DNA of 37,380 nucleotides, taken from UHGV virus genome UHGV-0349822; one strand, given 5' to 3'. Below are positions 5,480 through 33,462 of the stretch, piece after piece. The notes under the pieces were generated by a model. It worked only from the letters and a program-made list of their open reading frames with translations, was not told the DNA's origin and did no database searches. Each line of letters begins with the position of its first letter. The first letter of the stretch is position 1. Source of the stretch: a virus. Both the position numbers and the translations under genes were made by a program.

Positions 5480-5490
5480 TGGATTTGCCC

Positions 5491-7034: not shown

Positions 7035-7214
7035 ATGAAAAACGCATTGCAGTTTTTGTTTGTTGCGTTCTGGTTGTTCGTATCATGTATGCCCATCATC
7101 TTCACAGCAAGGTATATGGAAAAAGTTGATGTTTTGATATTAATATTTGGATATATAAATGCCCTTTTTTTAGGGGTGTTCATGGCGGTCATGTGCATTG
7201 AATACTGGCGGTAA
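7035..7214 (+). CDS. small two-helix hydrophobic membrane protein (about 60 aa)
   Basis: In-frame ATG at 7035 with AGGAGG Shine-Dalgarno (track ORF 6996-7214); MKNALQFLFVAFWLFVSCMPIIF...LILIFGYINALFLGVFMAVMCIEYWR; AT-rich locus. Confidence 0.4.
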   Translation: MKNALQFLFVAFWLFVSCMPIIFTARYMEKVDVLILIFGYINALFLGVFMAVMCIEYWR

Positions 7215-7473
7215 ATACAGCGAACGCCATTGGTTTAGTTGGATATTTACTGTGCCGGACAAAAACGGTTTGCGGGGAAATCTTAGTTAAGTAGAATGAC
7301 TGCGGGTGCTTGAGGCTATCTGTCTCAGGCATGAACACCAAAAGGCAGATAGAGAAAAGCCCCAGTTAACATTACGCGTCCTGCAAGACGCTTAACATTA
7401 ATCTGAGGCCATATCTATGCTCTACACACGTAGGTTAGCCTCTTACGTGCCGAAAGGCAAGGAGAAGCAGGCT

Positions 7474-11843: not shown

Positions 11844-11919
11844 GGCCCTTTAGCTCAGTGGTGAGAGCGAGCGACTCATAATCGCCAGGTCGCTGGTTCA
11901 AATCCAGCAAGGGCCACCA
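11844..11919 (+). tRNA. tRNA with CAU anticodon (likely Ile2/ileZ-like, AUA-decoding after lysidine modification; could be Met)
   Basis: 76 nt; acceptor stem GGCCCTT/AAGGGCC, anticodon loop CUCAUAA, T-arm GGTTCAAATCC, 3' CCA. Confidence 0.8.
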
Positions 11920-12019: not shown

Positions 12020-12096
12020 GCGTTGTTAGCTCAGCCGGACAGAGCAATTGCCTTCTAAGCAATCGGTTACTGGTTCGAATCCAGTACAGCGCGCCA
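12020..12096 (+). tRNA. tRNA-Arg (anticodon UCU, AGA-decoding)
   Basis: 77 nt; acceptor GCGTTGT/ACAGCGC, anticodon loop CUUCUAA, T-arm GGTTCGAATCC, 3' CCA. Confidence 0.8.
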
Positions 12097-16730: not shown

Positions 16731-17185
16731 GCAGAGTCGCAGCGATTATTTATACTCTGGTTATCTGCACCATCGTCTGCCTGTCGTGGGCGGTCAATCA
16801 TTACCGTGATAACGCCATCGCCTACAAAGAGCAGCGCGATAACAAGGCCAGTGAACTGGAGAAGGCGAACGCCACCATCGCTGACATGCGGAAGCGTCAA
16901 CGTGATGTAGCAGAACTCGACGCAAGATACACAAAGGAGCTTGCTGATGCTAACGCGACTATCGAAAGTCTCCGTGCTGATGTTTCTGCTGGGCGTAAGC
17001 GCCTGCAAGTCGCCGCCACCTGTGCAAAGTCAACGACCGGAGCCAGCGGCATGGGCGATGGAGAAAGCCCAGGACTTACAGCAGATGCTGAACTCAATTA
17101 TTACCGTCTCCGAAGTGGAATCGACAAGATAACCGCGCAGGTCAACTACCTGCAGGAGTACATCAGGACGCAGTGCTTAAAATAA
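16727..17185 (+). CDS. Rz: i-spanin Rz
   Basis: GTG start overlapping the endolysin stop; [33 protein letters not shown]... closely parallels lambda Rz. Confidence 0.8.
16941..17132 (+). CDS. Rz1: o-spanin Rz1 (lipoprotein) embedded in the +1 frame of Rz
   Basis: Signal peptide with lipobox (LLGVSAC) then a proline-rich stretch ([13 protein letters not shown]); fully nested in Rz. Confidence 0.7.
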
Positions 17186-17225
17186 TTTTAATTTCACTGA
17201 AATTTAATACGTGACTTTCAGGAAA

Positions 17226-17251
17226 ATGCCTCGCAGATGCGGGGCATTTTT
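17226..17251 (+). terminator. intrinsic terminator after the lysis cassette
   Basis: ATGCCTCGC-AGAT-GCGGGGCAT hairpin followed by TTTTT. Confidence 0.6.
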
Positions 17252-17601
17252 GTACAGGTATTTCACCGCGCACCGCAGCGCACTCAACCACGTCGAACCA
17301 AACCCTTTGGAATGAGCCTTTGAGTAGTCAGTTAGTGCTGGTGAGCCTTGACGGGCTGATCTCCTATGCAGCAAAGGTTCATCTCAAAGTAAGGCGAACG
17401 CTATGACAAACCAAGATTCTATAGACCTATCTGATCTTCGTGGAATGGTCAGTTTTCCAGACAAAAGGTAATCACCATAGTCGTATGGCTATGAATCTTG
17501 TTGCTGCAGATAAGCATTTTGTGATTGAAGTGGTCAAATCTCTCAAATGCAGTAAAATGCAGTGCGCTATAATTCAATAACGGAGGGAGTAAGGAGAAGT
17601 C

Positions 17602-18222
17602 ATGAAAGATCAAGATGTTAGGTTCGCGGTGCATCATAAGCTTTTGAAAGAATCGCATTTAGATCCAGACTGCCTTGTGGTCGATGAATTTTCCATATCC
17701 CTTGGCGCCAGTAGAGCAGACATTGCTGTAATAAATGGTGTTATACACGGGTACGAGCTCAAAAGTGAATATGACTCTTTGGAGCGTTTGCCTCTTCAAA
17801 TCAAGCATTATTCTTCTGTAATGGACAAGGTTACTCTTGTCGTAGCTGAGAAACATCTTGAGGGAGCATTAAAGTTAATCCCAGGTTGGTGGGGCGTTAA
17901 AACGGTTTCTGTTGGGCCAAAAGGCGCCATTCTTATAAAGCACATGCGTGGAGAAAAGCTTAATCGAAACCATGACACATTGATGCTCGCTCAATTGCTT
18001 TGGAAAGATGAATGTATCGACGTACTTGAACGATGGGGCTATTCCAAAGGAATCAAAAGCAAGCCCCGATTTGAGTTATGGAATATTATTGCGGAAAATA
18101 TTCCAATAGCGAATCTCAGGCTTGAAGTCAGAACAGCCTTAAAGAAACGCGTAGGCTGGAAAGTTAAGGCTTGGCAGGCTGAGTCTGCGCCAACCAATAA
18201 AGCTGTTTCACGACTAACGTAA
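17602..18222 (+). CDS. cargo protein A (206 aa) with PD-(D/E)xK-like motif (putative restriction-endonuclease-fold nuclease)
   Basis: AGGAGAAG Shine-Dalgarno; motif E29...D40-x11-E52-L-K54 (VVDEF...RADIAVINGVIHGYELK); AT-rich, with several ATA/AGA/AGG codons. Confidence 0.6.
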   Translation: MKDQDVRFAVHHKLLKESHLDPDCLVVDEFSISLGASRADIAVINGVIHGYELKSEYDSLERLPLQIKHYSSVMDKVTLVVAEKHLEGALKLIPGWWGVKTVSVGPKGAILIKHMRGEKLNRNHDTLMLAQLLWKDECIDVLERWGYSKGIKSKPRFELWNIIAENIPIANLRLEVRTALKKRVGWKVKAWQAESAPTNKAVSRLT

Positions 18223-19231
18223 TATGGTGCGTATGTGCAACTTTACGCCATTCTTTAGAGCCGCCAGATTTGTTAGCGCCTAATGATCTTTGGTAAATGT
18301 AATCATCCCCCCAACTAAATTTGGAACCAAAGACTTGATACTCTGGCGAACTAACAAGGGTAGTACATAAGTTTTTAGTTTGGCCCCATCCATTTCCTTT
18401 AACTGCGGTACCTTTTACAAAGATCCATGAGGTATCGTTCGAATATCTCACTGAGACATACTGAGACATGAAGCGTGGGTCTACGCTCGTAATGGTAGAG
18501 CTAGCGGTGGGATAATCACTAAAACTTGGCGTTCTTCCATTGCTAAAATTCTGTACTACGTGCATCCAAAGATCGTATTCATGGCGCGGAATATGATGAA
18601 CTTGATGTTGCGGTATCCCTGCCTGTGATGCTGGGTATGCGGTTGAAGATAAAATCAAGTTTCTCCACGGAGCTTGGCCTGATAATGTGTTGACCATGCT
18701 TAATGCTTGTTGTTTTAAACTATCAGTTGCGTTTTGAATATCTCCAAAATCAATGATTACATCAATTAAACTAGGATGAATATTTAAGTGGTTAACCAGA
18801 CTTGTGAATTGGTGCCATGTCTGGGGGGTGATAGATATAGCGAGCCCATTGATTAAGTTGCGTTGAACAGCATGTATATAGTTTGTTGAATATGCGGGAG
18901 AAACAACAGGGATAATTTCCTTACCATTTACTCTAGCATCTTGGATACACATATCTAGAGGATGATGGCGGCTCGAACCATGTTTATCTAAATATTTAAC
19001 ATCCAGCAAAACAGGACGATTGGCTTTCCAGGATGCCGCAAGGTTAATACCGAAGTCAGATAAGTAAGAACTCAAACTCTTCTTGTAGCATTCGTTTTCA
19101 TAATCCCAGTCTATGTCTGGAATGGTAATGATCGGAGTAAAACCAGAGAGCGTAGTTTGATCTAAAAGCATCAGAGATTCATATTCAGCAGGCTTCCATT
19201 TCAGCTGTGGATAATATTGATGTTGACTCAT
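18164..19231 (-). CDS. cargo protein B (355 aa), unknown function, convergent partner of protein A
   Basis: ORF in track with AAGGAG Shine-Dalgarno 7 nt upstream of ATG; AT-rich; 3' end overlaps protein A by 59 bp. Confidence 0.6.
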   Translation of the reverse strand: MSQHQYYPQLKWKPAEYESLMLLDQTTLSGFTPIITIPDIDWDYENECYKKSLSSYLSDFGINLAASWKANRPVLLDVKYLDKHGSSRHHPLDMCIQDARVNGKEIIPVVSPAYSTNYIHAVQRNLINGLAISITPQTWHQFTSLVNHLNIHPSLIDVIIDFGDIQNATDSLKQQALSMVNTLSGQAPWRNLILSSTAYPASQAGIPQHQVHHIPRHEYDLWMHVVQNFSNGRTPSFSDYPTASSTITSVDPRFMSQYVSVRYSNDTSWIFVKGTAVKGNGWGQTKNLCTTLVSSPEYQVFGSKFSWGDDYIYQRSLGANKSGGSKEWRKVAHTHHITLVVKQLYWLAQTQPAKP

Positions 19232-19454
19232 TAAAACTCCTTAAAATCTTTACTTATCCTAAGTATAGTGTTATGGCGTAACGCCAATTGTTTTTATACA
19301 CTTGAAAACATTAGGAAAAGTTGAGCTATATCTAAATTTACAAAATTGGATGTTATAGAAATCGAGGTTTCAACTAGGCATGGAACTGCAAAATTTTTAA
19401 TGCCTGCACGCGAAAGTCGTTGGCGGGTCCTTTCCGGTGATCCAGACCGTTACG

Positions 19455-19466
19455 GGGCGGCGACCT
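19455..19466. other. cos cohesive-end site (cosN), with cosQ-like and cosB-like flanks
   Basis: GGGCGGCGACCT is identical to the lambda 12-nt cohesive end; flanks (CGTTGGCGGGTCCTTTCCGGTGATCC...GTTACG upstream; CGCGGTTTTTCACTATTTATGAAAATTTT downstream) parallel the lambda genome ends; inverted repeats at about 19561-19615 resemble Nu1 R-sites. Confidence 0.75.
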
Positions 19467-19641
19467 CGCGGTTTTTCACTATTTATGAAAATTTTTCAGG
19501 GAAAATCGTGTCGGTACTTCTCGAATATAACTTTTTGTTTTTTTTAATATTGCATTCATAAATGTCCGACATGAAAGTGTCCGAAAATGCCTTTTTCTGG
19601 CGTTTTCATGTCGGGCCTTGTATTTGATAATGGGTTGTTCT

Positions 19642-20190
19642 ATGAAGGTTAATAAAAAGAGGCTTGCCGAAATTTTTAACGTGGACCCGCGGACGATTGA
19701 ACGCTGGCAGTCTCAGGGGCTCCCTTGCGTCTCCAAAGGCAGTAAGGGCATTGAATCTGTATTTGATACTGCCATGGCAATTCAGTGGTATGCGCAGAGG
19801 GAAACTGATATCGAAAACGAAAAGCTCCGCAAAGAACTGGCCGATTTGCGTGCGGCAGCGGAGTCAGATTTACAACCCGGCACCATTGACTATGAACGCT
19901 ACCGGCTCACAAAAGCGCAGGCAGATGCGCAGGAACTGAAAAATGCCCGTGAAGACGGAGTGGTGCTGGAAACTGAACTGTTTACCTTTATTCTGCAACG
20001 TGTGGCACAGGAGATTTCGGGGATACTTGTGCGTGTGCCGTTGACATTACAGCGTAAATATCCGGACATTTCACCATCACACCTTGATGTGGTGAAAACT
20101 GAAATCGCGAAAGCCTCCAATGTTGCAGCTAAGGCCGGTGAAAACGTGGGCGGGTGGATCGATGATTTCAGACGCACAGAAGGCAGCTAA
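19642..20190 (+). CDS. nu1: terminase small subunit (lambda Nu1-like)
   Basis: [28 protein letters not shown]...[28 protein letters not shown]... closely parallels lambda gpNu1. Confidence 0.85.
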
Positions 20191-20978
20191 TGCAGCCGGT
20201 GCGATAGCTACAGGGCTTTTATCTCTCATTATTCCTGTTCCACTGACGACAGTTCAGTGGGCCAATAAACATTATTACCTTCCTAAAGAGTCGTCTTATA
20301 CCCCGGGGCGGTGGGAAACACTGCCGTTTCAGGTTGGCATCATGAACTGTATGGGCAACGATTTGATTCGCACTGTTAACCTGATTAAATCTGCCCGTGT
20401 TGGTTATACAAAGATGTTGCTGGGAGTGGAGGCTTATTTTATTGAGCGGGGGGATCGATGGCGAAATTGTCTATCAGAGGTCAAAAAAACACGGTGTTTT
20501 CCGGGTGCTGCCGGTAAAAGGTGCATCTGTTTATGGCAAGCCGGTGATCACCATGCCAAAAACCCGCAATCAGCGGGGCGTGTATCTGTGCGAAGTGGGG
20601 ACGGACACCGCAAAAGAAATTCTCTATGCCCGTATGAAAGCCGATCCCACGCCTGCGGATGAAGCCACGTCGTATGCCATCCGTTTTCCTGATGATCCGG
20701 AGATTTTTTCGCAGACAGAGGCGCAGCAACTGGTGGCGGAAGAGCTTGTGGAGAAGTGGGAAAAAGGAAAGATGCGTCTGCTGTGGGATAACAAAAAGCG
20801 GCGTAACGAAGCGCTGGACTGCCTGGTGTATGCCTACGCGGCATTACGTGTGTCCGTGCAACGCTGGCAGCTTGATCTGGCTGTACTGGCAAAATCCCGG
20901 GAAGAAGAGACGACCCGGCCAACCCTTAAAGAACTGGCAGCGAAGCTGTCCGGAGGAGTGAATGGTTACAGTCGCTGA
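20162..20978 (+). pseudogene. A: terminase large subunit (lambda gpA-like) with about 1.1 kb internal out-of-frame deletion
   Basis: N-terminal ~95 aa (to ...LGVEAYFIE, 20162-20446) and C-terminal ~175 aa (GGIDGEIVYQRSKKHG... to 20978) both match lambda gpA but lie in different frames. Nu1-to-W distance is ~0.77 kb versus ~1.9 kb in lambda. Confidence 0.8.
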
Positions 20979-21168
20979 ACTGCAGGCGCTGCGTCAGGCG
21001 CGCCTTGATTTATTAACCGGTAAACGGGTGGTGTCTGTTCAGAAAGATGGTCGCAGAATTGAATATACGGCAGCTTCTCTGGATGAGCTTAACCGGGCGA
21101 TCAATGATGCGGAGTCGGTACTGGGGACAACCCGCCGTCGCCGTCGTCCGCTGGGAGTGAGGTTATGA
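20962..21168 (+). CDS. W: head-tail joining protein gpW
   Basis: 68 aa; LTGKRVVSVQKDGRRIEYTAASL matches lambda gpW. Confidence 0.85.
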   Translation: MVTVAELQALRQARLDLLTGKRVVSVQKDGRRIEYTAASLDELNRAINDAESVLGTTRRRRRPLGVRL

Positions 21169-22757
21169 AACGAACGCCTGTCCTGATTGATGTGAACGGC
21201 GTTCCGCTTCGGGAGAGCCTCAGCTACACCGGTGGCGGTGCAGGATTTGGCGGGCAAATGGCAGAGTGGTTGCCACCCTCGCAGAGTGCCGATGCGGCCC
21301 TGCTGCCCGCGTTGCGTCTGGGGAATGCCCGTGCAGATGATCTGGTGCGCAATAACGGAATAGCGGCCAATGCGGTGGCCCTGCATAAGGATCACATTGT
21401 CGGGCATATGTTTCTGATTAGCTACCGTCCGAACTGGCGCTGGCTGGGGATGCGGGAGACCGCGGCAAAAAGTTTTGTCGATGAGGTGGAGGCGGCCTGG
21501 TCAGAATACGCAGAAGGGATGTTTGGTGAGATCGACGTGGAAGGGAAACGCACGTTTACGGAATTTATCCGTGAAGGTGTGGGCGTTCATGCGTTTAACG
21601 GCGAAATCTTTGTGCAGCCGGTCTGGGATACGGAGAGTACGCAACTGTTTCGTACGCGTTTTAAAGCCGTGAGTCCGAAACGGGTGGACACGCCAGGACA
21701 CGGTATCGGGAACCGTTTTCTGCGGGCCGGTGTGGAGGTTGATCGATATGGCCGTGCCGTTGCGTACCATATCTGTGAGGATGATTTTCCTCGCTCCGGG
21801 AGTGGACGATGGGAACGGATCCCGCGTGAACTACCCACCGGGCGTCCGGCCATGCTGCATATTTTCGAGCCGGTGGAGGACGGGCAGACCCGTGGAGCCA
21901 ATCAGTTTTACAGCGTTATGGAACGGCTGAAGATGCTGGATTCCCTGCAGGCAACACAGCTTCAGTCGGCCATAGTGAAGGCGATGTATGCAGCGACGAT
22001 TGAAAGTGACCTTGATACCGAAAAGGCCTTTGAATATATCGCCGGTGCGCCGCAGGGGCAGAAGGATAATCCGCTTATTAATATTCTGGATAAGTTCTCC
22101 ACCTGGTATGACACGAATAGCGTGACGCTGGGCGGTGTCAAAATTCCGCACCTTTTCCCCGGTGATGATCTGAAACTTCAGACCGCGCAGGATTCAGACA
22201 ATGGATTTTCGGCGCTTGAACAGGCGCTGCTGCGGTATATCGCCGCCGGTCTTGGCGTTTCCTACGAACAGTTGTCCCGTGATTACTCGAAGGTCAGTTA
22301 CTCAAGTGCCCGCGCATCCGCCAATGAGTCGTGGCGCTATTTTATGGGGCGGCGAAAATTTATTGCGTCCCGGCTGGCCACGCAGATGTTTTCCTGCTGG
22401 CTGGAAGAGGCACTTCTTCGGGGGATTATTCGTCCGCCACGGGCACGGTTTGATTTTTATCAGGCGCGATCAGCCTGGTCACGGGCTGAGTGGATTGGAG
22501 CCGGAAGAATGGCCATTGACGGGCTCAAGGAGGTTCAGGAATCAGTGATGCGCATTGAGGCCGGACTGAGCACGTATGAGAAAGAGCTGGCGCTGATGGG
22601 CGAGGATTATCAGGACATTTTCCGCCAGCAGGTCAGGGAATCTGCAGAGCGGGAAAAAGCCGGACTCTCACGTCCGGTGTGGATAGCGCAGGCGTATCAG
22701 CAGCAGATAGCGGAGAGTCGCAGGCCGGAAGAGGAGACAACACCACGTGAGACGTAA
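21165..22757 (+). CDS. B: portal protein gpB
   Basis: 530 aa; extensive match to lambda gpB (e.g. FEPVEDGQTRGAN, LLRYIAAGLGVSYEQLSR, GRMAIDGLKEVQE). Confidence 0.9.
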   Translation: MKRTPVLIDVNGVPLRESLSYTGGGAGFGGQMAEWLPPSQSADAALLPALRLGNARADDLVRNNGIAANAVALHKDHIVGHMFLISYRPNWRWLGMRETAAKSFVDEVEAAWSEYAEGMFGEIDVEGKRTFTEFIREGVGVHAFNGEIFVQPVWDTESTQLFRTRFKAVSPKRVDTPGHGIGNRFLRAGVEVDRYGRAVAYHICEDDFPRSGSGRWERIPRELPTGRPAMLHIFEPVEDGQTRGANQFYSVMERLKMLDSLQATQLQSAIVKAMYAATIESDLDTEKAFEYIAGAPQGQKDNPLINILDKFSTWYDTNSVTLGGVKIPHLFPGDDLKLQTAQDSDNGFSALEQALLRYIAAGLGVSYEQLSRDYSKVSYSSARASANESWRYFMGRRKFIASRLATQMFSCWLEEALLRGIIRPPRARFDFYQARSAWSRAEWIGAGRMAIDGLKEVQESVMRIEAGLSTYEKELALMGEDYQDIFRQQVRESAEREKAGLSRPVWIAQAYQQQIAESRRPEEETTPRET

Positions 22758-24252
22758 TCTTTCACACATTATTGCAGCAGCATTCAATGAACCGCTGCTT
22801 CTGGAGCCCGCCTATGCGCGGGTTTTCTTTTGCGCGCTGGGGCGCGAGATGGGGGCAGCAAGTCTTTCGGTACCGCAACAGCAGGTACAGCTTGATGCTC
22901 CCGGGATGCTGGCTGAAACGGACGAGTACATGGCCGGAGGTAAACGACCGGCCCGTGTTTACCGGGTGGTGAACGGTATTGCGGTACTGCCGGTGACCGG
23001 CACGCTGGTGCACCGGCTGGGGGGGATGCGGCCATTTTCCGGAATGACTGGCTATGACGGCATTGTCGCCTGTCTTCAGCAGGCAATGGCAGATAGCCAG
23101 GTGCGGGGCATACTGCTGGACATTGACAGTCCGGGCGGGCAGGCCGCCGGCGCGTTTGACTGCGCTGACATGATTTACCGCCTCCGGCAGCAGAAGCCGG
23201 TCTGGGCACTGTGTAATGACACGGCCTGTTCTGCGGCCATGCTGCTGGCGTCGGCCTGCTCCCGACGGCTGGTTACCCAGACATCCCGTATCGGTTCCAT
23301 TGGCGTGATGATGAGCCATGTCAGCTATGCCGGTCATCTGGCGCAGGCCGGTGTGGATATCACGCTGATTTACTCAGGGGCGCACAAGGTGGATGGCAAT
23401 CAGTTTGAAGCGTTGCCGGCAGAGGTTCGCCAGGACATGCAGCAGCGGATTGATGCGGCGCGCCGGATGTTTGCCGAAAAAGTGGCGATGTTTACCGGTC
23501 TGTCTATTGATGCAGTCACGGGAACAGAGGCCGCTGTTTTTGAAGGTCAGTCCGGCATTGAGGCCGGGCTGGCGGATGAATTAATCAATGCGTCGGATGC
23601 CATCAGTGTGATGGCCACGGCGCTGAACAGTAATGTCAGAGGAGGCACTATGCCGCAATTAACTGCAACGGAAGCCGCCGTGCAGGAGAACCAGCGAGTG
23701 ATGGGGATCCTGACATGCCAGGAAGCGAAAGGACGTGAACAGCTTGCCACGATGCTGGCAGGGCAACAGGGCATGAGCGTTGAACAGGCCCGGGCGATTC
23801 TGGCCGCGGCGGCACCGCAGCAGCCGGTGGCATCCGCGCAGAGTGAAGCCGATCGCATTATGGCGTGTGAAGAAGCGAACGGTCGTGAACAACTGGCGGC
23901 AACGCTGGCGGCGATGCCGGAGATGACGGTGGAAAAAGCCCGCCCGATCCTGGCGGCTGCACCACTGGCGGATGCCGGGCCCTCACTTCGTGATCAGATC
24001 ATGGCCCTGGATGAGGCAAAAGGGGCAGAAGCGCAGGCTGAAAAACTGGCGGCCTGCCCGGGAATGACCGTGGAGAGCGCCCGGGCTGTGCTGGCTGCGG
24101 GATCAGGTAAGGCAGAACCGGTCTCTGCATCCACAACCGCCCTGTTTGAACATTTCATGGCGAACCATTCACCGGCTGCGGTCCAGGGGGGCGTGTCACA
24201 GGCGTCAGAAGACGGTGATGCGGACGTGAAAATGCTCATGGCCATGCCATGA
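22747..24252 (+). CDS. C: head maturation protease / scaffold gpC (S49 family)
   Basis: 501 aa; GTG start; matches lambda gpC (AFNEPLLLEPAYARVFF, GIAVLPVTGTLV, VWALCND, TLIYSGAHKVDGN). Confidence 0.85.
   Translation: MRRNLSHIIAAAFNEPLLLEPAYARVFFCALGREMGAASLSVPQQQVQLDAPGMLAETDEYMAGGKRPARVYRVVNGIAVLPVTGTLVHRLGGMRPFSGMTGYDGIVACLQQAMADSQVRGILLDIDSPGGQAAGAFDCADMIYRLRQQKPVWALCNDTACSAAMLLASACSRRLVTQTSRIGSIGVMMSHVSYAGHLAQAGVDITLIYSGAHKVDGNQFEALPAEVRQDMQQRIDAARRMFAEKVAMFTGLSIDAVTGTEAAVFEGQSGIEAGLADELINASDAISVMATALNSNVRGGTMPQLTATEAAVQENQRVMGILTCQEAKGREQLATMLAGQQGMSVEQARAILAAAAPQQPVASAQSEADRIMACEEANGREQLAATLAAMPEMTVEKARPILAAAPLADAGPSLRDQIMALDEAKGAEAQAEKLAACPGMTVESARAVLAAGSGKAEPVSASTTALFEHFMANHSPAAVQGGVSQASEDGDADVKMLMAMP
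23690..24110 (+). repeat. three tandem in-frame copies of a roughly 45-aa module in the C-terminal scaffold region of gpC
   Basis: RVMGILTCQEAKGREQLATMLAGQQGMSVEQARAILAAA / RIMACEEANGREQLAATLAAMPEMTVEKARPILAAA / QIMALDEAKGAEAQAEKLAACPGMTVESARAVLAAG; lambda C is remembered as having one copy. Confidence 0.5.
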
Positions 24253-24288
24253 AGTCAGTGCTGAACATCAATACGAGGTTTTAACAAT

Positions 24289-24636
24289 ATGGTGACGAAA
24301 ACCATCACTGAACAGCGTGCGGAAGTACGTATTTTTGCCGGTAATGATCCGGCTCACACCGCCACAGGCAGCAGCGGGATTTCCTCGGCAACACCGGCAC
24401 TGACACCCCTGATGCTGGATGGGGCCACCGGGAAACTGGTGGTCTGGGACGGACAGAAAGCCGGTAGTGCGGTTGGCATACTGGTACTGCCGCTTGAAGG
24501 CACAGAGGCGGTGCTGACCTATTACAAGTCGGGGACCTTTGCGACGGAGGCAATCCGCTGGCCTGAAAGTGTGGATGAACACAAAAAGGCCAACGCCTTT
24601 ACCGGCAGTGCCCTGAGTCACGCGGCGCTGCCGTAA
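24289..24636 (+). CDS. D: head decoration protein gpD
   Basis: 115 aa; DPAHTATG...TPLMLDG...YKSGTF matches lambda gpD. Confidence 0.85.
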   Translation: MVTKTITEQRAEVRIFAGNDPAHTATGSSGISSATPALTPLMLDGATGKLVVWDGQKAGSAVGILVLPLEGTEAVLTYYKSGTFATEAIRWPESVDEHKKANAFTGSALSHAALP

Positions 24637-24693
24637 CACGTTATCAGGCCACCGCGTTGGCCTGACTGATTTCTTAATGAAAGGAACTGATTT

Positions 24694-25722
24694 ATGGGAT
24701 TGTTTACGACCCGCCAGTTACTCGGTTATACCGAACAAAAAGTTAAATTCCGTGCGCTGTTTCTGGAGCTGTTTTTCCGCCGTACGGTGAATTTCCACAC
24801 CGAAGAGGTGATGCTGGACAAAATTACCGGAAAAACGCCGGTGGCGGCCTATGTCTCCCCGATCGTTGAAGGAAAAGTGCTTCGCCATCGCGGTGGTGAA
24901 ACCCGCGTGTTACGTCCGGGCTACGTCAAGCCCAAACACGAATTTAATTACCAGCAGGCGGTTGAGCGCCTTCCTGGTGAAGATCCGGCTCAGCTGAACG
25001 ACCCGGCCTACCGTCGTCTGCGTATCATTACCGATAACCTCAAACAGGAAGAGCACGCCATTGTCCAGGTGGAAGAAATGCAGGCGGTGAATGCCGTGCT
25101 GTATGGCAAATACACCATGGAAGGGGAACAGTTTGACACGGTCGAGGTGGATTTCGGACGCTCTGAAGGAAATAACATTGAGCAGGCCGACGGTAAAAAA
25201 TGGTCTGAGCAGGACCGTGATACGTTTGATCCGACGCATGATATTGACCTTTACTGCGATCAGGCCAGCGGTCTTGTGAATATTGCCATTATGGACGGTA
25301 CGGTCTGGCGTCTGCTGAATGGCTTTAAGCTGTTCCGCGAAAAACTGGATACCCGTCGCGGCTCAAATTCACAACTCGAAACGGCAGTGAAAGACCTGGG
25401 AGCGGTGGTGTCTTTCAAAGGGTATTACGGTGATCTGGCCATTGTGGTGGCGAAAACGTCTTATGTGGCAGACGACGGTACCGAAAAACGTTATCTGCCG
25501 GTGGGCACACTGGTCCTGGGGAATACGGCAGCAGAGGGCATTCGTTGCTATGGTGCCATTCAGGATGCGCAGGCGTTGTCCGAAGGTGTGGTGGCCTCTT
25601 CCCGTTATCCGAAACACTGGCTGACTGTGGGCGATCCGGCCCGTGAATTCACCATGACGCAGTCCGCACCGCTGATGGTGCTGCCGGATCCGGATGAGTT
25701 TGTGGTGGTGCAGGTGAAATAA
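24694..25722 (+). CDS. E: major capsid protein gpE
   Basis: 342 aa; closely parallels lambda gpE (LDTRRGSNS.LETAVKDLG, GDPAREFTM.QSAPLM). Confidence 0.9.
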   Translation: MGLFTTRQLLGYTEQKVKFRALFLELFFRRTVNFHTEEVMLDKITGKTPVAAYVSPIVEGKVLRHRGGETRVLRPGYVKPKHEFNYQQAVERLPGEDPAQLNDPAYRRLRIITDNLKQEEHAIVQVEEMQAVNAVLYGKYTMEGEQFDTVEVDFGRSEGNNIEQADGKKWSEQDRDTFDPTHDIDLYCDQASGLVNIAIMDGTVWRLLNGFKLFREKLDTRRGSNSQLETAVKDLGAVVSFKGYYGDLAIVVAKTSYVADDGTEKRYLPVGTLVLGNTAAEGIRCYGAIQDAQALSEGVVASSRYPKHWLTVGDPAREFTMTQSAPLMVLPDPDEFVVVQVK

Positions 25723-25730
25723 TCCGTGAG

Positions 25731-25759
25731 CGGGGGCGAAATGCCCCCGTGTCTTTTTT
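25731..25759 (+). terminator. intrinsic terminator/attenuator after the major capsid gene
   Basis: CGGGGGC-GAAAT-GCCCCCG hairpin followed by TGTCTTTTTT. Confidence 0.55.
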
Positions 25760-25773
25760 CACAGGAGGCTGAG

Positions 25774-26157
25774 ATGGCAACAAAAGAAGAAAATCTGAAT
25801 CGTCTTCGTCAACTGGCTGGCCTGCTGGGGCGCGAGGCGGATATGTCGGGGAGTGCTGCGGATATTGCGCAACGTGTGTCTGAGTGGGAAGAGGAGCTTG
25901 CTGTTTCCCCGGAGGGCATTATGCACTCTGATGAGAGCGGGGCTGATCAAAATCACACAGACGATGGTGAGCAGTTGAACAACACGGATGCTCCGGATGA
26001 TGTTAAAGCCGTCCGGGTACGGAAGTGCCTGCAAGTAATGGGGTATTGCCCGGAGACAGGTCGTCCCGTTGAGCTGGCGTTACGGGGTATGCGTGTTCTG
26101 GTGCCATCATCACTGGCAACGGCCATGATACAGCACGGAACGGCTGAATATGCGTGA
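25774..26157 (+). CDS. FI: DNA-packaging/head assembly protein FI-like
   Basis: ATG after AGGAGG within track ORF 25726-26157; acidic protein at the lambda FI position. Confidence 0.65.
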   Translation: MATKEENLNRLRQLAGLLGREADMSGSAADIAQRVSEWEEELAVSPEGIMHSDESGADQNHTDDGEQLNNTDAPDDVKAVRVRKCLQVMGYCPETGRPVELALRGMRVLVPSSLATAMIQHGTAEYA

Positions 26158-26503
26158 TTTTCAGAATGCCTTTGATGCTGCCCTCGCCGGGGTAGACAGT
26201 ACGATCGTTGAAGTGATGGGACTCTGTGCGCAGTTCACCTCGGGGGCACAGTGTGGCAGCGAAGTTCAGGGGGTTTTTGACGATCCGGAGTCGCTGGGGT
26301 TTGCCGGTGGCGGGGTCCGTATTGAAGGAAGCTGCCCGTCATTATTTGTGCGGACGGATACGGTTCGTGCCGTGCGGCGTGGTGACACGCTGACCATTAA
26401 TGGTGAGACATTCTGGGTGGATCGTGTTTCTCCGGATGACGGGGGCAGCTGTTATCTCTGGCTCAACCGTGGGCAACCACCCGCAGTTAACCGGCGACGA
26501 TAA
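26150..26503 (+). CDS. FII: head-tail connector gpFII
   Basis: 117 aa; GVFDDPE...FVRTD.VR..RRGDTLTI...FWVDRVSPDDGGSC.LWL.RG.PPAVNRRR matches lambda FII. Confidence 0.85.
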   Translation: MRDFQNAFDAALAGVDSTIVEVMGLCAQFTSGAQCGSEVQGVFDDPESLGFAGGGVRIEGSCPSLFVRTDTVRAVRRGDTLTINGETFWVDRVSPDDGGSCYLWLNRGQPPAVNRRR

Positions 26504-26517
26504 ACGCAGGGTGAATT

Positions 26518-27093
26518 ATGGCGATAAAAGGGCTTGATCAGGCGATTGACAATCTGAGCCGGGTTCGTAAAAACGCCATTCCGGCTGCTTCTGCAATGAC
26601 CATTAACCGCGTGGCCATAACGGCGATTAATCAGTCTTCGTCACAGGTTGCCCGGGAAACCAGGGTGAGACGGAAACTGGTAAAGGAACGGTCCAGACTG
26701 AAACGGGCGACGGTCAGAAATCCGAATGCCAGAATTATCGTTAACCGCGGTGATCTCCCTGTGATTAAGCTGGGGATCAGAATGCTGGGGCGTCGTCCGA
26801 ACAGCATACTCAAAGCCGGTCAGCATCGTTATCAGCGGGCATTTATCCAGCGATTAAATAATGGGCGCTGGCATGTTATGCAACGTCTTCCCCAGGCCAG
26901 ATATGAGGAGGGCAATGACGACAAGGGAAGGAAAAAGCGTAATCGCCTTCCCATTCAGGTGGTGAAAATCCCGATGGCGGCCCCACTGAAACAGGCATTT
27001 GATGAGAATGTTGACCGTATCCGGCGTGAACGCCTGCCTAAAGAACTGGCATACGCGCTGAAACAACAACTGAGGATTGCGATAAAACGATGA
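26518..27093 (+). CDS. Z: tail completion protein gpZ
   Basis: 191 aa; MAIKGL.QA..NLSR...NRVA..AI.QS.SQVARET.VRRKLVKER.RLKRATV matches lambda Z. Confidence 0.85.
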   Translation: MAIKGLDQAIDNLSRVRKNAIPAASAMTINRVAITAINQSSSQVARETRVRRKLVKERSRLKRATVRNPNARIIVNRGDLPVIKLGIRMLGRRPNSILKAGQHRYQRAFIQRLNNGRWHVMQRLPQARYEEGNDDKGRKKRNRLPIQVVKIPMAAPLKQAFDENVDRIRRERLPKELAYALKQQLRIAIKR

Positions 27094-27485
27094 AACACAC
27101 TGACATTCGTGCCGCAGTGCTGGATGCACTCGAGCAGCATGAACACGGGGCGACGCTGTTTGATGGTCGCCCCGTTGTTTTTGACGAAGAGGATTTTCCT
27201 GCGATCGCGGTTTATCTGACGGATGCAGAGTATACCGGTGAAGAGCTGGATGCAGATACCTGGCGGGCCACGCTGCACATTGAGGTGTTTTTACCGGCAC
27301 AGGTACCGGATTCAGAGCTTGATCAGTGGATGGAAAGCCGGATTTACCCGGCGATGACCGCGATCCCGGCACTGGCAGGACTGATTACCACGATGGTTAC
27401 GCAGGGCTATGAGTATCGTCGTGATGACGATATGGCGTTATGGAGTTCTGCAGATCTGACTTATTCCATTACATACGAGATGTGA
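27090..27485 (+). CDS. U: tail terminator gpU
   Basis: 131 aa; [44 protein letters not shown] matches lambda U. Confidence 0.85.
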
Positions 27486-27492
27486 GGACGAT

Positions 27493-28245
27493 ATGGCAAC
27501 ACCAAATCCCCTTGAGCCGGTAAAAGGTGCCGGTACCACTCTGTGGGTTTACAACGGCAAGGGTGATGCTTATGCAAACCCGTTGTCAGACGATGACTGG
27601 CAGCGACTGGCTAAGGTGAAGGATCTGACGCCGGGCGAGATGACGGCAGAATCCTACGATGATAACTACCTGGATGATGAAGACGCGGACTGGACCGCGA
27701 CCGGGCAGGGGCAGAAATCTGCAGGTGATACCAGTTTTACGCTGGCCTGGAAACCGGGAGAGGAAGGCCAGAAAGGGCTTATAGGCTGGTTTGAAAGCGG
27801 CGATGTCCGGGCCTATAAAATCCGTTTTCCGAATGGCACGGTGGATGTGTTTCGTGGCTGGGTCAGCAGTATCGGTAAGGCCGTGACGGCGAAAGAAGTG
27901 ATCACCCGCACGGTGAAAGTCACTAACGTGGGTAAACCTTCTGTAGCGGAAGAACGCAGCAAAATTACGCCGGTCAGTGCGATTAAGGTGACGCCGACAT
28001 CCGGTACGGTGGCAAAAGGGAAAACAACCACCCTGACGGTTTCTTTTGAGCCGGAAAGTGCAACCGACAAGACGTTCAGAGCGGTTTCCGCCGATCCGTC
28101 GAAAGCCACCATTAGTGTGAAAGATATGACAATTACGGTAAACGGCGTGGCGACAGGTAAGGTGCAGATCCCTGTGGTGAGCGGAAATGGTCAGTTCGCC
28201 GCAGTGGCTGAAGTCACCGTTACTGAAGCGGGCGCTGCAGGGTAA
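27493..28245 (+). CDS. V: major tail tube protein gpV (with C-terminal Ig-like domain)
   Basis: 250 aa; near-colinear with lambda V. Confidence 0.9.
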
Positions 28246-28258
28246 ACGGAGGTAATAC

Positions 28259-28690
28259 ATGTTTCTGAAAACAGAACAATTTGAATATAACGGTGTGTCT
28301 GTCACGCTTTCCGAATTGTCTGCGCTGCAGCGTATCGAGCATCTTGCCCTCCTGAAACGGCGTGCAGAACAGGCAGAATCCTGCGGCAACCTGCAGGTAA
28401 GCGTGGAAGATCTCGTCAGAACCGGCGCGTTTCTGGTGGCGATGTCCCTGTGGCATAACCATCCACAGAAAACGCAGTCACCGTCAATGAATGAGGCCGT
28501 GATGAAGATAGAGCAGGAAGTGCTCACCACCTGGCCTGCCGATGCCATTGCCCGGGCGGAAGACGTGGTGTTGTGCCTGTCCGGGATGATCGAAGCTGTT
28601 CGTCCGGATACTGATATTACTGAAGTGGCGAAAAATAACACGCTGACTGATGATGATTTTTCTGCGGGAAAGTCTTCGACGGCGAGCTGA
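28259..28690 (+). CDS. G: tail assembly chaperone gpG
   Basis: 143 aa; MFLKTE.FE.NGV.VTLSELSALQRIEHLAL.KR.AEQAES matches lambda G. Confidence 0.85.
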   Translation: MFLKTEQFEYNGVSVTLSELSALQRIEHLALLKRRAEQAESCGNLQVSVEDLVRTGAFLVAMSLWHNHPQKTQSPSMNEAVMKIEQEVLTTWPADAIARAEDVVLCLSGMIEAVRPDTDITEVAKNNTLTDDDFSAGKSSTAS

Positions 28691-29130
28691 ACTTTGCCCT
28701 CAGACTGGCGCGTGAGATGGGGAGACCCGACTGGCGCGCCATGCTTGCCGGGATGACATCCACCGAATATGCCGACTGGCACCGTTTTTACCGCACGCAT
28801 TATTTTCAGGATACCCAGCTGGATATGCATTTTTCCGGGCTGACGTACGCTGTACTCAGCCTGTTTTTTTGCGATCCGGATATGCATCCCTCTGATTTCA
28901 GTCTGCTTGTCCCCCGGCATGAGGAAGAGCAGGTGGAGAGGCCGGATGAGGACAAAATGCTGATGCAGAAAGCGGCAGGACTTGCCGGAGGCGTCCGGTT
29001 CGGTGGGGACGGAGGGCGCGATATTTTATCGTCTGCGGATGTGGCGGATGTCATGGTGGATGATGCCGCATTAATGATGGCTTCAGCGGGGATTCCGGGA
29101 GGTGTGAGATATGTCCCAGCCGGTTGGTGA
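28259..29130 (+). CDS. T: tail assembly chaperone G-T fusion made by -1 programmed ribosomal frameshift
   Basis: T reading frame (track ORF 28717-29130) is in the -1 frame relative to G and open back to the GGGAAAG slippery heptamer at 28666-28672. Confidence 0.7.
28666..28672 (+). promoter_or_regulatory. -1 ribosomal frameshift slippery site G GGA AAG
   Basis: Heptamer in the G frame, identical to the lambda G-T slippery sequence. Confidence 0.7.
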
Positions 29131-31684
29131 TCTTGTTATTGACCTGAGTCTGGATGCTGTCCGTTTCGATGAGCAGATGAGCCGGGTAAGGCGTCATTTT
29201 TCAGGTCTGGATACCGACGCCAGAAAAACCGCCAGTGCTGTTGAACAGGGCCTGAGCCGCCAGGCGCTGGCTGCACAAAAAGCCGGGATTTCCGTCGGGC
29301 AGTATAAAGCGGCCATGCGAACCCTGCCCGCACAGTTTACGGATATCGCCACGCAGCTTGCAGGTGGTCAGAATCCCTGGCTGATCCTGCTGCAACAGGG
29401 CGGTCAGGTGAAGGACTCCTTCGGCGGGATGATCCCCATGTTCAGGGGGCTTGCCGGTGCGATCACCCTGCCGATGGTCGGGGTCACCTCGCTGGCGGTG
29501 GCGACAGGTGCGCTGGTGTACGCCTGGTACCAGGGAGATTCCACGCTTTCAGCGTTTAATAAAACCCTGGTTCTTTCCGGTAATCAGTCCGGACTGACTG
29601 CCGATCGTATGCTGACTCTCTCAAGAGCCGGGCAGGCAGCAGGGCTGACGTTTAACCAGGCGAGAGAGTCACTGGCAGCCCTGGTGAATGCCGGTGTGCG
29701 TGGTGGTGAACAGTTTGATGCCATCAACCAGAGTGTCGCGCGTTTTGCGTCTGCATCCGGTGTGGAGGTGGATAAAGTCGCTGAAGCCTTCGGGAAGCTG
29801 ACCACTGACCCGACGTCGGGACTGATGGCGATGGCGCGCCAGTTCCGTAACGTGACGGCAGAGCAGATTGCGTATGTTGCACAGCTGCAGCGTTCCGGAG
29901 ACGAGGCCGGGGCATTGCAGGCGGCGAACGATATCGCCACGAAAGGCTTTGATGAGCAGACCCGTCGCCTGAAAGAAAACATGGGAACACTGGAGACCTG
30001 GGCGGATAAAACAGGGAAGGCATTCAAATCGATGTGGGATGCCATTCTGGATATCGGTCGTCCGGAATCCTCAGCGGATATGCTCGCCAGTGCGCAGAAG
30101 GCATTTGATGAGGCGGATAAAAAATGGCAGTGGTACCAGAGCCGGAGCCAGCGCCGCGGTAAAACCTCCTCTTTCCGGGCCAACCTTCAGGGCGCATGGG
30201 ATGACCGGGAAAATGCCCGTCTGGGTCTGGCAGCGGCAACGCTGCAGTCGGATATGGAAAAAGCCGGTGAACTGGCGGCAAGGGACAGGGCTGAGCGTGA
30301 GTCGTCACAGCTGAAGTATACCGGAGAGGCGCAGAAGGCGTATGAGCGCCTGCTGACGCCACTGGAGAAATATACCGCCCGGCAGGAAGAGCTGAATAAG
30401 GCCCTGAAAGACGGGAAAATCCTGCAGGCGGATTACAACACGCTGATGGCGTCGGCAAAAAAGGATTATGAGTCGACGCAGAAAAAGCCGTCCGGTGTGA
30501 AGGTGTCTGCCGGTGAGCGCCAGGAAGACCAGGCGCATGCAGCCCTGCTGGCGCTTGAAACCGAGCTCAGGACGCTGGAAAAACACAGCGGTGTGAATGA
30601 GAAAATCAGCCAGCAGCGCCGGGATTTATGGGAAGCGGAAAATCAGTATGTGGTCCTGAAAGAGGCCGCCACGAAACGGCAGTTATCTGAGCAGGAAAAA
30701 TCCCTGCTGGCCCATGAGAAAGAGACGCTGGAGTACAAACGCCAGCTGGCTGAGCTGGGCGACAAGATTGAACACCAGAAACGGCTGAATGAGCTGGCAC
30801 AGCAGGCGGCGCGGTTTGAACAGCAGCAGAGCGCGAAGCAGGCGGCAATCAGCGCAAAAGCCCGCGGACTCACCGACCGTCAGGCGCAGCGGGAGTCGGA
30901 AGAGCAGCGCCTTCGTGAGGTGTACGGTGATAATCCGGCTGCGCTGGCGAAGGCCACATCTGCACTGAAGAACACCTGGTCTGCGGAGGAGCAGCTTCGT
31001 GGAAGCTGGATGGCCGGGATGAAGTCCGGCTGGGGCGAGTGGGCGGAAAGTGCGACGGACAGTTTTTCGCAGGTTAAAAACGCGGCCACGCAGACCTTTG
31101 ACGGTATTGCACAGAATATGGCAGCGATGCTGACCGGCAGCGAACAGAACTGGCGTGGTTTCACCCGTTCTGTGCTGTCCATGCTGACAGAGATTTTTCT
31201 GAAGCAGGCGATGGTGGGGATAGTCGGGAGTATCGGCAGCGCCATTGGCGGGGCTGTTGGTGGTGGCGCATCCGCGTCAGGCGGTACAGCCATTCAGGCT
31301 GCGGCGGCGAACTTCCATTTCGCGACCGGGGGATTTACGGGGACGGGGGGTAAATATGAACCTGCGGGGATTGTTCATCGCGGGGAGTTTGTCTTCACGA
31401 AGGAGGCGACCAGCCGGATTGGTGTCGGCAATCTGTACCGCCTGATGCGGGGCTATGCGGAAGGTGGTTATGTCGGCGGTGCCGGAAGTCCGGCGCAGAT
31501 GCGGCGGGCGGAAGGCATTAATTTTAATCAGAACAATCACGTGGTGATTCAGAACGACGGCCCCAACGGGCGGGCAGGGCCGCAGCTGATGAAAGCGGTG
31601 TATGAGATGGCCCGCAAGGGGGCACAGGATGAACTCCGGCTGCAGTTGCGTGATGGCGGTATGTTATCAGGGAGCGGTGGATGA
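29111..31684 (+). CDS. H: tail tape-measure protein gpH
   Basis: 857 aa; long alpha-helical/coiled-coil protein with Gly-rich C-terminal region at the lambda H position and of similar length. Confidence 0.9.
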   Translation: MSQPVGDLVIDLSLDAVRFDEQMSRVRRHFSGLDTDARKTASAVEQGLSRQALAAQKAGISVGQYKAAMRTLPAQFTDIATQLAGGQNPWLILLQQGGQVKDSFGGMIPMFRGLAGAITLPMVGVTSLAVATGALVYAWYQGDSTLSAFNKTLVLSGNQSGLTADRMLTLSRAGQAAGLTFNQARESLAALVNAGVRGGEQFDAINQSVARFASASGVEVDKVAEAFGKLTTDPTSGLMAMARQFRNVTAEQIAYVAQLQRSGDEAGALQAANDIATKGFDEQTRRLKENMGTLETWADKTGKAFKSMWDAILDIGRPESSADMLASAQKAFDEADKKWQWYQSRSQRRGKTSSFRANLQGAWDDRENARLGLAAATLQSDMEKAGELAARDRAERESSQLKYTGEAQKAYERLLTPLEKYTARQEELNKALKDGKILQADYNTLMASAKKDYESTQKKPSGVKVSAGERQEDQAHAALLALETELRTLEKHSGVNEKISQQRRDLWEAENQYVVLKEAATKRQLSEQEKSLLAHEKETLEYKRQLAELGDKIEHQKRLNELAQQAARFEQQQSAKQAAISAKARGLTDRQAQRESEEQRLREVYGDNPAALAKATSALKNTWSAEEQLRGSWMAGMKSGWGEWAESATDSFSQVKNAATQTFDGIAQNMAAMLTGSEQNWRGFTRSVLSMLTEIFLKQAMVGIVGSIGSAIGGAVGGGASASGGTAIQAAAANFHFATGGFTGTGGKYEPAGIVHRGEFVFTKEATSRIGVGNLYRLMRGYAEGGYVGGAGSPAQMRRAEGINFNQNNHVVIQNDGPNGRAGPQLMKAVYEMARKGAQDELRLQLRDGGMLSGSGG

Positions 31685-32010
31685 AAACCTTTCGCTGGAA
31701 AGTGAAGCCGGATATGGAGGTGAACTCGCAGCCATCGGTGCGTGAAGTGCGTTTTGGTGACGGGTACTCACAGCGTATGGCGGCAGGGCTGAATGCTGAC
31801 CTGAAAACATACAGGGTGACGCTTTCCGTGACCCGGGAGGAGGCCCGGCATCTGGAAGCGTTCCTGGCAGAGCACGGTGGCTGGAAGGCATTTTTGTGGA
31901 AGCCACCCTATGCATACCGGCAGATAAAGGTGACCTGTGCCGGGTGGTCTGCGCGGGTCGGGATGTTGCGCGTTGAGTTCAGCGCGGAGTTTAAGCAGGT
32001 GGTGAACTGA
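31681..32010 (+). CDS. M: tail tip protein gpM
   Basis: 109 aa; MKTFRWKVKP.M.V.S.PSVR.VRFGDGYSQR matches lambda M. Confidence 0.85.
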   Translation: MKTFRWKVKPDMEVNSQPSVREVRFGDGYSQRMAAGLNADLKTYRVTLSVTREEARHLEAFLAEHGGWKAFLWKPPYAYRQIKVTCAGWSARVGMLRVEFSAEFKQVVN

Positions 32011-32708
32011 TGCAGGATATTCGAGAAGAAAGTCTGAACGAGTCGGTTAAGTCAGAGCAGTCACCGCGGGTGGTACTCTGGGAAATCGACCTGACGGTAC
32101 AGGGTGGTGAGCGGTATTTTTTCTGTAATGAGCTGAATGAAAAAGGGGAGCCGGTCACCTGGCAGGGGCGTAAGTATGAGGCATACCCGATTGACGGCAG
32201 CGGCTTTGAGATGAACGGCCGGGGCAGCAGTGCCAGACCGTCGCTGACGGTGTCCAATCTGTTCGGTCTGGTCACCGGGATGGCGGAAGACCTGCAGAGT
32301 CTGGTGGGGGCCACGGTGGTCCGCCGCCGGGTGTATGCCCGTTTTCTGGATGCGGTGAATTTCGTTGCGGGCAATCCGGAGGCGGACCCGGAGCAGGAGC
32401 TGAGTGACCGCTGGGTGGTGGAGCAGATGTCGCAGCTGACAGCCATGACGGCCTCGTTTGTGCTGGCTACACCGACCGAGACGGACGGGGCGCTGTTTCC
32501 CGGTCGCATCATGCTGGCGAACACCTGTATGTGGGATTACCGGGGAGATGAATGCGGGTATAACGGTCCTGCGGTGGCGGATGAGTTCGACAACCCCACC
32601 ACGGATATCCGTAAGGACAGATGCAGCAAGTGCATGCGCGGGTGTGAACTGCGCAGGAATGTCGGCAATTTTGGCGGTTTCCTTTCCATTAATAAACTTT
32701 CGCAGTAA
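32010..32708 (+). CDS. L: tail tip protein gpL
   Basis: 232 aa; ...GNFGGFLSINKLSQ C-terminus and overall colinearity with lambda L. Confidence 0.85.
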   Translation: MQDIREESLNESVKSEQSPRVVLWEIDLTVQGGERYFFCNELNEKGEPVTWQGRKYEAYPIDGSGFEMNGRGSSARPSLTVSNLFGLVTGMAEDLQSLVGATVVRRRVYARFLDAVNFVAGNPEADPEQELSDRWVVEQMSQLTAMTASFVLATPTETDGALFPGRIMLANTCMWDYRGDECGYNGPAVADEFDNPTTDIRKDRCSKCMRGCELRRNVGNFGGFLSINKLSQ

Positions 32709-32718
32709 ATCCCGGTTT

Positions 32719-33462
32719 ATGACACAGACTGAATCAGCGATTCTGGCGCATGCCCGGCGGTGTGCGCCTGCGGAGTCGTGCGGCTTCGTGATAAGCACGC
32801 CGGAGGGGGAGTGGTATATCCCTTGTGTGAATATTTCTGCAGAGCCGGAGGCGTATTTTCGTATCGCACCGGAAGACTGGCTGCGGGCAGAGATGCAGGG
32901 GGAGATTGTGGCACTGGTCCACAGTCATCCCGGTGGGCTGCCCTGGCTGAGCGAGGCTGACCGGCGGCTGCAGATAAAAAGCGCACTGCCCTGGTGGCTG
33001 GTCTGCCGGGGTGACATTCACAAATTCCGCTGTGTGCCACATCTGACAGGACGGCGCTTTGAGCACGGGGTGACGGACTGTTACACGCTGTTCCGGGATG
33101 CTTATCATCTGGCGGGGACTGAAATGCCGGATTTTCATCGCGAGGATGACTGGTGGCGCAACGGTCAGAACCTTTACCTGGACAATATGGCGGTCACCGG
33201 CTTTTACCGGGTGCCCCTGTCCTCTGCACAGGCGGGCGATATTCTGCTGTGCTGCTTTGGTGCTTCGGTACCGAACCATGCCGCCATTTACTGCGGCAAC
33301 GGTGAGCTTCTTCACCATCTGCCTGAACAACTGAGTAAACGGGAGAGGTATTCCGAAAAATGGCAACGACGAACGCATTCTGTCTGGCGTCACCGCCACT
33401 GGCACGCATCTGCCTTCACGGGGATTTACAACGATTTGGCCGCCGCCTCAGCCTGTATGTGA
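32719..33462 (+). CDS. K: tail tip assembly protein gpK (JAB/MPN + NlpC/P60-like)
   Basis: In-frame ATG at 32719 within track ORF 32458-33462; MTQTESAILAHARRCAPAESCGFV...HSHPGG matches lambda K. Confidence 0.8.
   Translation: MTQTESAILAHARRCAPAESCGFVISTPEGEWYIPCVNISAEPEAYFRIAPEDWLRAEMQGEIVALVHSHPGGLPWLSEADRRLQIKSALPWWLVCRGDIHKFRCVPHLTGRRFEHGVTDCYTLFRDAYHLAGTEMPDFHREDDWWRNGQNLYLDNMAVTGFYRVPLSSAQAGDILLCCFGASVPNHAAIYCGNGELLHHLPEQLSKRERYSEKWQRRTHSVWRHRHWHASAFTGIYNDLAAASACM

Follow-up and report, generated by a model that had tools for sequence, protein, structure and literature searches.

An internal out-of-frame deletion in the phage 21-type large terminase gene of a lambdoid prophage

The window analyzed here is a stretch of 37,380 nucleotides (UHGV virus genome UHGV-0349822), and between positions 19400 and 22800 it shows the lambda-type order of packaging and head genes, cos-1-2-W-B, as in phage 21. 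The cosN sequence, GGGCGGCGACCT, was read directly at 19455-19466 on the plus strand, within a phage 21-type cos region (about 19400-19641) upstream of gene 1; two phage 21 records, OL657228 and X02501 ('bacteriophage 21 cos segment'), align from window position 19455 with 98.0-98.4% identity. Gene 1 (19642-20190, plus strand) is intact and encodes a Nu1-like small terminase subunit (TerS) of 182 aa, which matches positions 1-163 of 164 of the Pfam profile Phage_Nu1 (E=2e-81) and is identical to the PGAP terminase small subunit WP_000867575.1. Gene W (20962-21168, plus strand), which overlaps the 3' end of the large terminase gene (terL) by 17 nt, is also intact; it encodes a head-tail joining protein of 68 aa (Pfam gpW over its full length, E=1e-22) that is annotated in the relatives of this prophage. 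The intact portal gene (21165-22757, plus strand) encodes a 530-aa protein identical to the PGAP 'phage portal protein' WP_000831818.1 of L001, a complete Escherichia coli genome (strain ampC_0069) that served as the intact reference and was compared by blastn with the whole window. Phage 21 is the closest named phage, with 97.7-98% DNA identity over cos, gene 1, gene 2, gene 3 (W-like) and the portal gene. The identity over cos and gene 1 (97.7-98.4%) and the presence of the cosN sequence given above assign the region to phage 21 packaging specificity.

In the relatives, the prophage measures about 49 kb and is located between ompW and yciE/trp, with the integrase and excisionase genes (int and xis) next to ompW and outside the window. 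The early region is Rac-like and includes racR, a ydaS-like gene, ydaT, an O-like replication gene and a Ren-like gene. The prophage also carries Q, a DNA methyltransferase gene, two tRNA genes, IraM and a NanS-like esterase gene. Its lysis cassette is full, and its lambda-like set of head and tail genes is complete. The genes described in the original prediction as apparently intact (Nu1, portal, capsid, tail and lysis) are identical to those of relatives that PGAP annotates as intact, and the same applies to the cos region. Apart from terL, the window differs from the L001-type relatives by three point substitutions only.

The terL gene is of the phage 21 type (gene 2, a homologue of lambda gpA), and both of its ends are retained in the window at 20162-20978. 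When lambda gpA (from NC_001416) was used as a tblastn query against window positions 20100-21000, gpA residues 18-99 matched positions 20213-20458 in one frame (68% identity, E=1e-34), and residues 457-638 matched positions 20400-20954 in another frame (58% identity, E=1e-71); PF05876 and PF20454 were both detected above their gathering thresholds. The blastn comparison with L001 placed window positions 1-20447 at L001 602-21048 and positions 20447-37380 at L001 22160-39093, with three substitutions in 37.4 kb (99.99% identity between the prophages). Exactly 1,111 bp of the L001 gene, corresponding to terL nucleotides 287-1397 or codons 96-466, are missing from the window. Since this length is not a multiple of three (1111 mod 3 = 1), the deletion is out of frame. 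The two alignments bear out the original prediction that N- and C-terminal parts of a gpA homologue are joined in different frames near 20446/20447 by an internal deletion of approximately 1.1 kb. Such an arrangement could not have arisen by chance.

The 5' remnant of terL (20162-20446, plus strand) comprises codons 1-95, the last native residues being LLGVEAYFIE, and is identical to L001 20763-21047. The junction itself is a single C at position 20447 (plus strand) that can be assigned to either side. Native sequence resumes from 20448 at GGIDGEIVYQRSKKHG, codon 467, and the 3' remnant (20448-20978, plus strand), which is identical to L001 22161-22691, contains codons 467-642 and the stop codon (20976-20978). 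The two remnants together occupy 817 bp, compared with 1,929 bp (642 aa) for the intact gene of L001 (20763-22691), which is annotated as 'phage terminase large subunit family protein', and the interval between gene 1 and W contains no continuous open reading frame (ORF) of approximately 640 aa. In the window, 771 bp lie between the stop codon of the Nu1-like gene (20190) and the beginning of W (20962), compared with 1,882 bp in intact relatives, which corresponds to the predicted spacing of ~0.77 kb instead of ~1.9 kb. In an intact relative, the sequences flanking the deleted segment are ATTGAGC/ATAAAT on the left and GGGACAC/CGGGGGG on the right, so that the overlap is limited to the single C (1 bp); no direct or inverted repeats bracketing the segment with the right spacing were found at the endpoints.

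The 5' ORF begins with the ATG at 20162, the expected terL start overlapping the end of gene 1, and reads MISDAQ. According to the ORF listing, it continues beyond the junction into an out-of-frame read-through (20447-20662, plus strand) of 71 nonsense codons (RGDRWRNCLSEV...) that terminates at the stop codon at 20660-20662, giving a predicted product of 166 aa. The two remnants do not share a reading frame, and the 3' remnant has neither a start codon nor a ribosome-binding site of its own. The 642-aa protein of the intact relative is collinear with lambda gpA throughout (67% identity); therefore, the missing segment belongs to the core terminase, and it is the deletion that represents the derived condition. 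For the same reason, we rejected the idea that the 1.1 kb present in the relatives is a mobile insertion such as an intron, an intein or an insertion sequence.

The Pfam domains of the two remnants are fragmentary: the 5' ORF covers only positions 2-53 of 247 of the GpA_ATPase profile and the 3' ORF only positions 150-287 of 294 of GpA_nuclease, whereas both domains are complete in the intact relative. Motif positions were taken from PMC6379665 and the domain layout of TerL from the summary in PMC9026076; up to about residue 530, residues carry the same numbers as in lambda. Residues 1-95 retain the TerS-binding N-terminus and the Walker A motif (KSARVGYT, residues 76-83). A complete ASCE ATPase center was not found, because Walker B (VVCYD) and the catalytic Glu179 lie within the deleted codons 96-466; the same deletion took out the lid subdomain and the proximal half of the nuclease domain, to which the AGIDSQ strand (residue 401) belongs. 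Residues 467-642, i.e., the distal nuclease domain, a coiled-coil helix and the portal-binding tail, persist as untranslated DNA; no complete C-terminal endonuclease domain was present, and the residual part is not translated in its native frame. The statement in the original prediction that most of the ATPase and nuclease region is missing holds in this respect, with the correction that Walker A and the TerS-binding N-terminus have survived.

None of the 11 Glu179 substitutions tested in lambda yielded detectable phage (PMC6379665). Deprived of Walker B, Glu179, the lid and the proximal half of its nuclease domain, the terL allele is, by analogy with lambda genetics, presumably a complete null for cos cleavage and DNA translocation. 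The incapacity to cut cos and package DNA that had been predicted is consistent with these data, in that the lost elements are indispensable in the lambda terminase (PMC6379665). Compared with gp2 of phage 21 and gpA of lambda (PF05876 plus PF20454), the terL of the window lacks codons 96-466, its remainder is out of frame, and it is a pseudogene. A frameshifted deletion allele of terL is an inactivating lesion in an essential gene, essentiality being taken from lambda genetics (PMC6379665), which places the prophage among defective prophages.

The terL gene type was found in 1,977 of 5,426 complete E. coli genomes, and at least 80% of its length was covered in 1,922 of these. A megablast search with window positions 19400-21400 listed 30 matches to the terL locus at approximately 100% identity, every one of which was split and spanned 3,113 bp against the 2,001 bp of the query; the listed matches therefore carry an intact terL. 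The 20-kb left arm of the prophage was shared at a coverage of at least 80% by 32 of the 5,426 genomes. The junction was absent from all 5,426 genomes when a 120-nt junction-spanning query was used in megablast, with no match extending beyond the left 61 nt. Exact scans with the junction 39-mer (GGCTTATTTTATTGAGCGGGGGGATCGATGGCGAAATTG) and with 22-mers detected it in none of the species-representative genome, IMG/VR and JGI metagenome contig collections, and exact look-ups of the predicted 166-, 180- and 193-aa ORF products gave no match, probably because the locus is treated as a pseudogene, or given other starts, during annotation. The absence of the junction from the 5,426 genomes and the intact terL of the listed relatives indicate that the lesion is very young and rare.

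A homology search with the 166-aa product revealed one junction-bearing protein, P0001, of 143 aa, which is 100% identical to the query and cut by a contig end. It contains the same junction followed by the same frameshifted tail and is encoded on L006, a Logan contig of 3,610 bp built from the reads of SRA run SRR12234493. L006 contains the junction 39-mer and is identical to window positions 17003-20612 at all but two of its 3,610 positions (window 17279 and 20591). A de Bruijn graph is unable to join sequences that share one base. Because an assembly of this type cannot produce a join with a 1-bp overlap, the junction must be present in the reads of SRR12234493, and the deletion is probably real. 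Our literature search found nothing on SRR12234493, nor on the prophage or the terminase allele in ST648-type strains.

At the two variant positions, one on each side of the deletion (L006 277 and 3589, corresponding to window 17279 and 20591), L006 has a T where the window has a C. The T alleles at both sites exist in other prophages (L016; L009, L011 and L013-L015), and all four combinations of deletion presence or absence with the C and T alleles were observed; the L006 haplotype was found in no complete genome. L006 may derive from the same isolate as the window or from a sister lineage, and recombination or the smoothing of a second prophage copy into the contig may account for the allele pattern. 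Compared with its best left-arm relatives, the window has at least one private substitution in each arm; its source genome is therefore not among the complete genomes.

These observations bear on several alternative explanations. The isolate might have an intact terL from which 1.1 kb was lost during assembly, scaffolding or editing of the record; the junction was found in no complete genome or contig collection searched, and the truncated ORF products are not recorded as called genes, as would be expected in that case. However, an identical junction with the same frameshifted tail occurs in the independently built Logan contig from the raw reads of SRR12234493, the endpoints contain no repeat that could collapse an assembly, and the window carries private SNPs as expected for a real isolate, so that an artefact of this kind is unlikely. 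That an essential packaging gene has a clean internal deletion while the rest of the prophage is untouched would also be compatible with a prophage disabled on purpose in the laboratory. Against this, the deletion is out of frame and not bounded by codons, no scar (FRT, loxP or a marker) was observed, restriction sites are not present at both ends, and the relatives with a listed host or source are mostly from humans, with others from dogs, a dolphin and the environment; we consider engineering very improbable. The occurrence of two ORFs with terminase similarity, and nothing further, might suggest a functional terminase from another family that is short or split by nature. This reading was rejected and has next to no probability, since the pieces are 100% identical in DNA sequence to the two ends of the relatives' 642-aa gene, each Pfam domain is only partial, the 3' piece could not be translated from signals of its own, and the catalytic Glu179 and Walker B are absent (PMC6379665). 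The alignment of 20162-20978 with gpA in all frames, which yielded the two-frame match, likewise excludes a short terminase of a different family.

The original prediction had also regarded the lesion as the hallmark of a domesticated or cryptic prophage and its cargo as fixed in the host, and neither claim was upheld. If the deletion were kept for the benefit of the host, as a phage disarmed together with its cargo or through an N-terminal decoy, the retention of the native start, the translational coupling to gene 1 and the TerS-binding region in the 5' fragment would be understandable; in lambda, the N-terminal region of gpA binds TerS (Wu et al. 1988, as cited in PMC4669245). The junction is moreover known from two slightly different sequences, the window and L006, and potential cargo genes are present (the sce7726/Beta_protein pair, the methyltransferase, the NanS-like esterase and Lom). 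On the other hand, none of the 5,426 complete genomes has the allele, not even those with the same prophage, whose terL is intact in the matches listed, and the sequences have hardly diverged since the deletion arose (3 SNPs in 37 kb). Conservation of the lesion across a host lineage was not observed, its one other occurrence being in a single SRA run (SRR12234493), nor was there any loss of host-killing functions: Q and the holin, lysozyme and Rz-like genes are identical to the intact genes of the relatives, so that induction would still kill the cell and the deletion does not protect the host. It is doubtful whether a product with a nonsense tail of 71 residues would be stable. A conserved, selected state is thus not supported, and we regard it as quite unlikely. 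The more specific idea that the 166-aa product acts as a dominant-negative decoy, titrating 21-type TerS and blocking packaging in phages that share this specificity, whether superinfecting or co-resident, is highly improbable; if true, it could explain the same junction in two slightly different sequences and would represent a terminase-fragment form of superinfection interference. As for fixation of the cargo, the relatives retain int and xis, so excision and loss could still occur, and both packaging in trans of the Sp4 type and recombination are known (PMC2669165).

The most probable explanation is that the window contains a genuine and very recent spontaneous deletion of terL in an otherwise complete lambdoid prophage, i.e., a case of ordinary deletional decay. 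Independent terL lesions are common in public assemblies of the same prophage family, and the window deletion fits this general process; they inactivate the same gene, but their endpoints and sizes differ from those of the window deletion, and the junction at 20447 occurs in none of them. The absence of homology at the endpoints beyond 1 bp suggests illegitimate recombination, which would have fused codon 95 out of frame to codon 467. The deletion allele is undescribed; the kind of event is well known. The cryptic lambdoid prophages of K-12 (Rac, DLP12, Qin and e14) have lost most of their structural genes and are conserved across a lineage. The window prophage resembles them in its early region (racR, ydaS-like, ydaT, dicB and hokD), and deletional decay is a process general to both, but it differs in being of full length (about 49 kb in relatives) with one rare and recent lesion. 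A closer parallel is Sp4 of O157:H7 Sakai, in which nu1 is disrupted by an insertion sequence and which is packaged in trans by the Sp14 terminase, whose cos is nearly identical (PMC2669165); recombination between lambdoid prophages also regenerates functional (transducing) phages (Asadulghani et al. 2009, PMC2669165). Both are lambdoid prophages with an intact cos and a terminase lesion as the packaging defect, and such elements can be mobilized in trans or by recombination. In contrast to Sp4, which is affected in the small subunit by an insertion and has several other defects, the window prophage carries a plain deletion in the large subunit with the rest intact.

Under the preferred explanation of a recent spontaneous deletion, the only product expected from terL would be the 166-aa polypeptide, in which 71 nonsense residues are attached to the TerS-binding N-terminus and Walker A, and the remaining nuclease domain and portal-binding tail would not be translated. 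On induction, the prophage should excise, replicate, build proheads and tails and lyse the cell; however, cosN nicking and DNA translocation would be lost, and no infectious particles would be expected from the prophage alone. Rescue might be possible through a co-resident or superinfecting phage that supplies a terminase of 21 specificity, or through repair of the gene by recombination. The practical consequences are modest, and no new biological question is opened. This copy of the prophage and its cargo (the candidate defence pair, methyltransferase, NanS-like esterase and Lom) should not spread from the strain as its own virion, and prophage-prediction tools that score the prophage as 'intact' would be wrong. 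As an example of a very young lesion, the case involves one event in a 49-kb prophage that is otherwise perfect, and it also shows that a broken terminase by itself is no evidence of domestication.

Several of the other terL lesions were located at recurrent positions. In L017, L020, L021, L022 and L023, terL is broken at codon 72-73, at GTTAAC (L001 20979-20982; window 20372-20384, codons 71-74, ...CGCACTGTTAACC...), giving four independent rearranged remnants. The right-hand partners at this site were gpT, joined by a 9.3-kb deletion; a 52-bp piece of the W/portal junction followed by the end of the tape-measure gene; a 54-bp piece of the portal gene end and then the tail-fibre region; and an inverted FII/FI segment. 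The deletion measures about 9.3 kb in L020 and L021 and is larger in L017 and L022. The junctions show 2-5 bp of microhomology, and the left arms are mutually diverged; the site looks like a deletion hot spot. The two junctions tested, those of L020 and L017, were absent from the 5,426 complete genomes. An A7 run at window positions 20488-20494 (nucleotides 1428-1434 of intact terL, near codon 478) carries indels of 1-2 nt, as gains or losses, in L007-L011, which are NCBI/ENA assemblies of related prophages; these indels split terL into ORFs of about 490-514 aa and 141 aa, and the 141-aa ORF is indexed in 77 blocks of the collection. The run is either a true slippage hot spot or a site of homopolymer sequencing errors. 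L016 (GCA_005508815.1, NXEQ01000084.1), which has the same sce7726/Beta_protein cargo, contains at 6390-7330 a tandem duplication of approximately 250 bp that includes the 3' end of terL and the start of W; two gpW genes (49 aa and 68 aa) were called, and the region corresponding to window position 20591 occurs twice.

Other features of the window were recorded outside the packaging region. Within 5212-6719, an IS3-family element (transposase gene at 5491-6719, minus strand) abuts a truncated and frameshifted ORF of the nin region (5212-5480); the insertion is common to all close relatives and is therefore an older scar that was already in the prophage. Between the lysis cassette and cos lies a convergent gene pair (17602-18222, plus strand, and 18164-19231, minus strand) with a 59-bp overlap, encoding sce7726-family and Beta_protein (PF14350) products. 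The pair matches the PADLOC models cll (4e-31), beta and PD-Lambda-2_C (3e-32) and occupies a known lambdoid moron position, which makes it a candidate anti-phage defence cargo. The two tRNA genes, at 11844-11919 and 12020-12096, are located downstream of the DNA methyltransferase gene, and after them come IraM and the NanS-like SASA esterase gene. The first was called tRNA-Met (anticodon CAT) by ARAGORN and tRNA-Ile by PGAP and is presumably of the lysidine-modified Ile2 type; the second is tRNA-Arg (TCT). Of the three substitutions relative to L001, the G-to-A change at 2167 is private to the window and was found in none of the complete-genome relatives listed. It converts GGAG into GGAA at a distance of 9 nt upstream from the start codon (ATG) of a ydaS/cro-like gene (2176-2499), the first gene of the rightward early operon, and would probably weaken its Shine-Dalgarno sequence. 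The other two substitutions are an intergenic change at 1453, which is common to some relatives, and a synonymous change at 31264 in the tape-measure gene.
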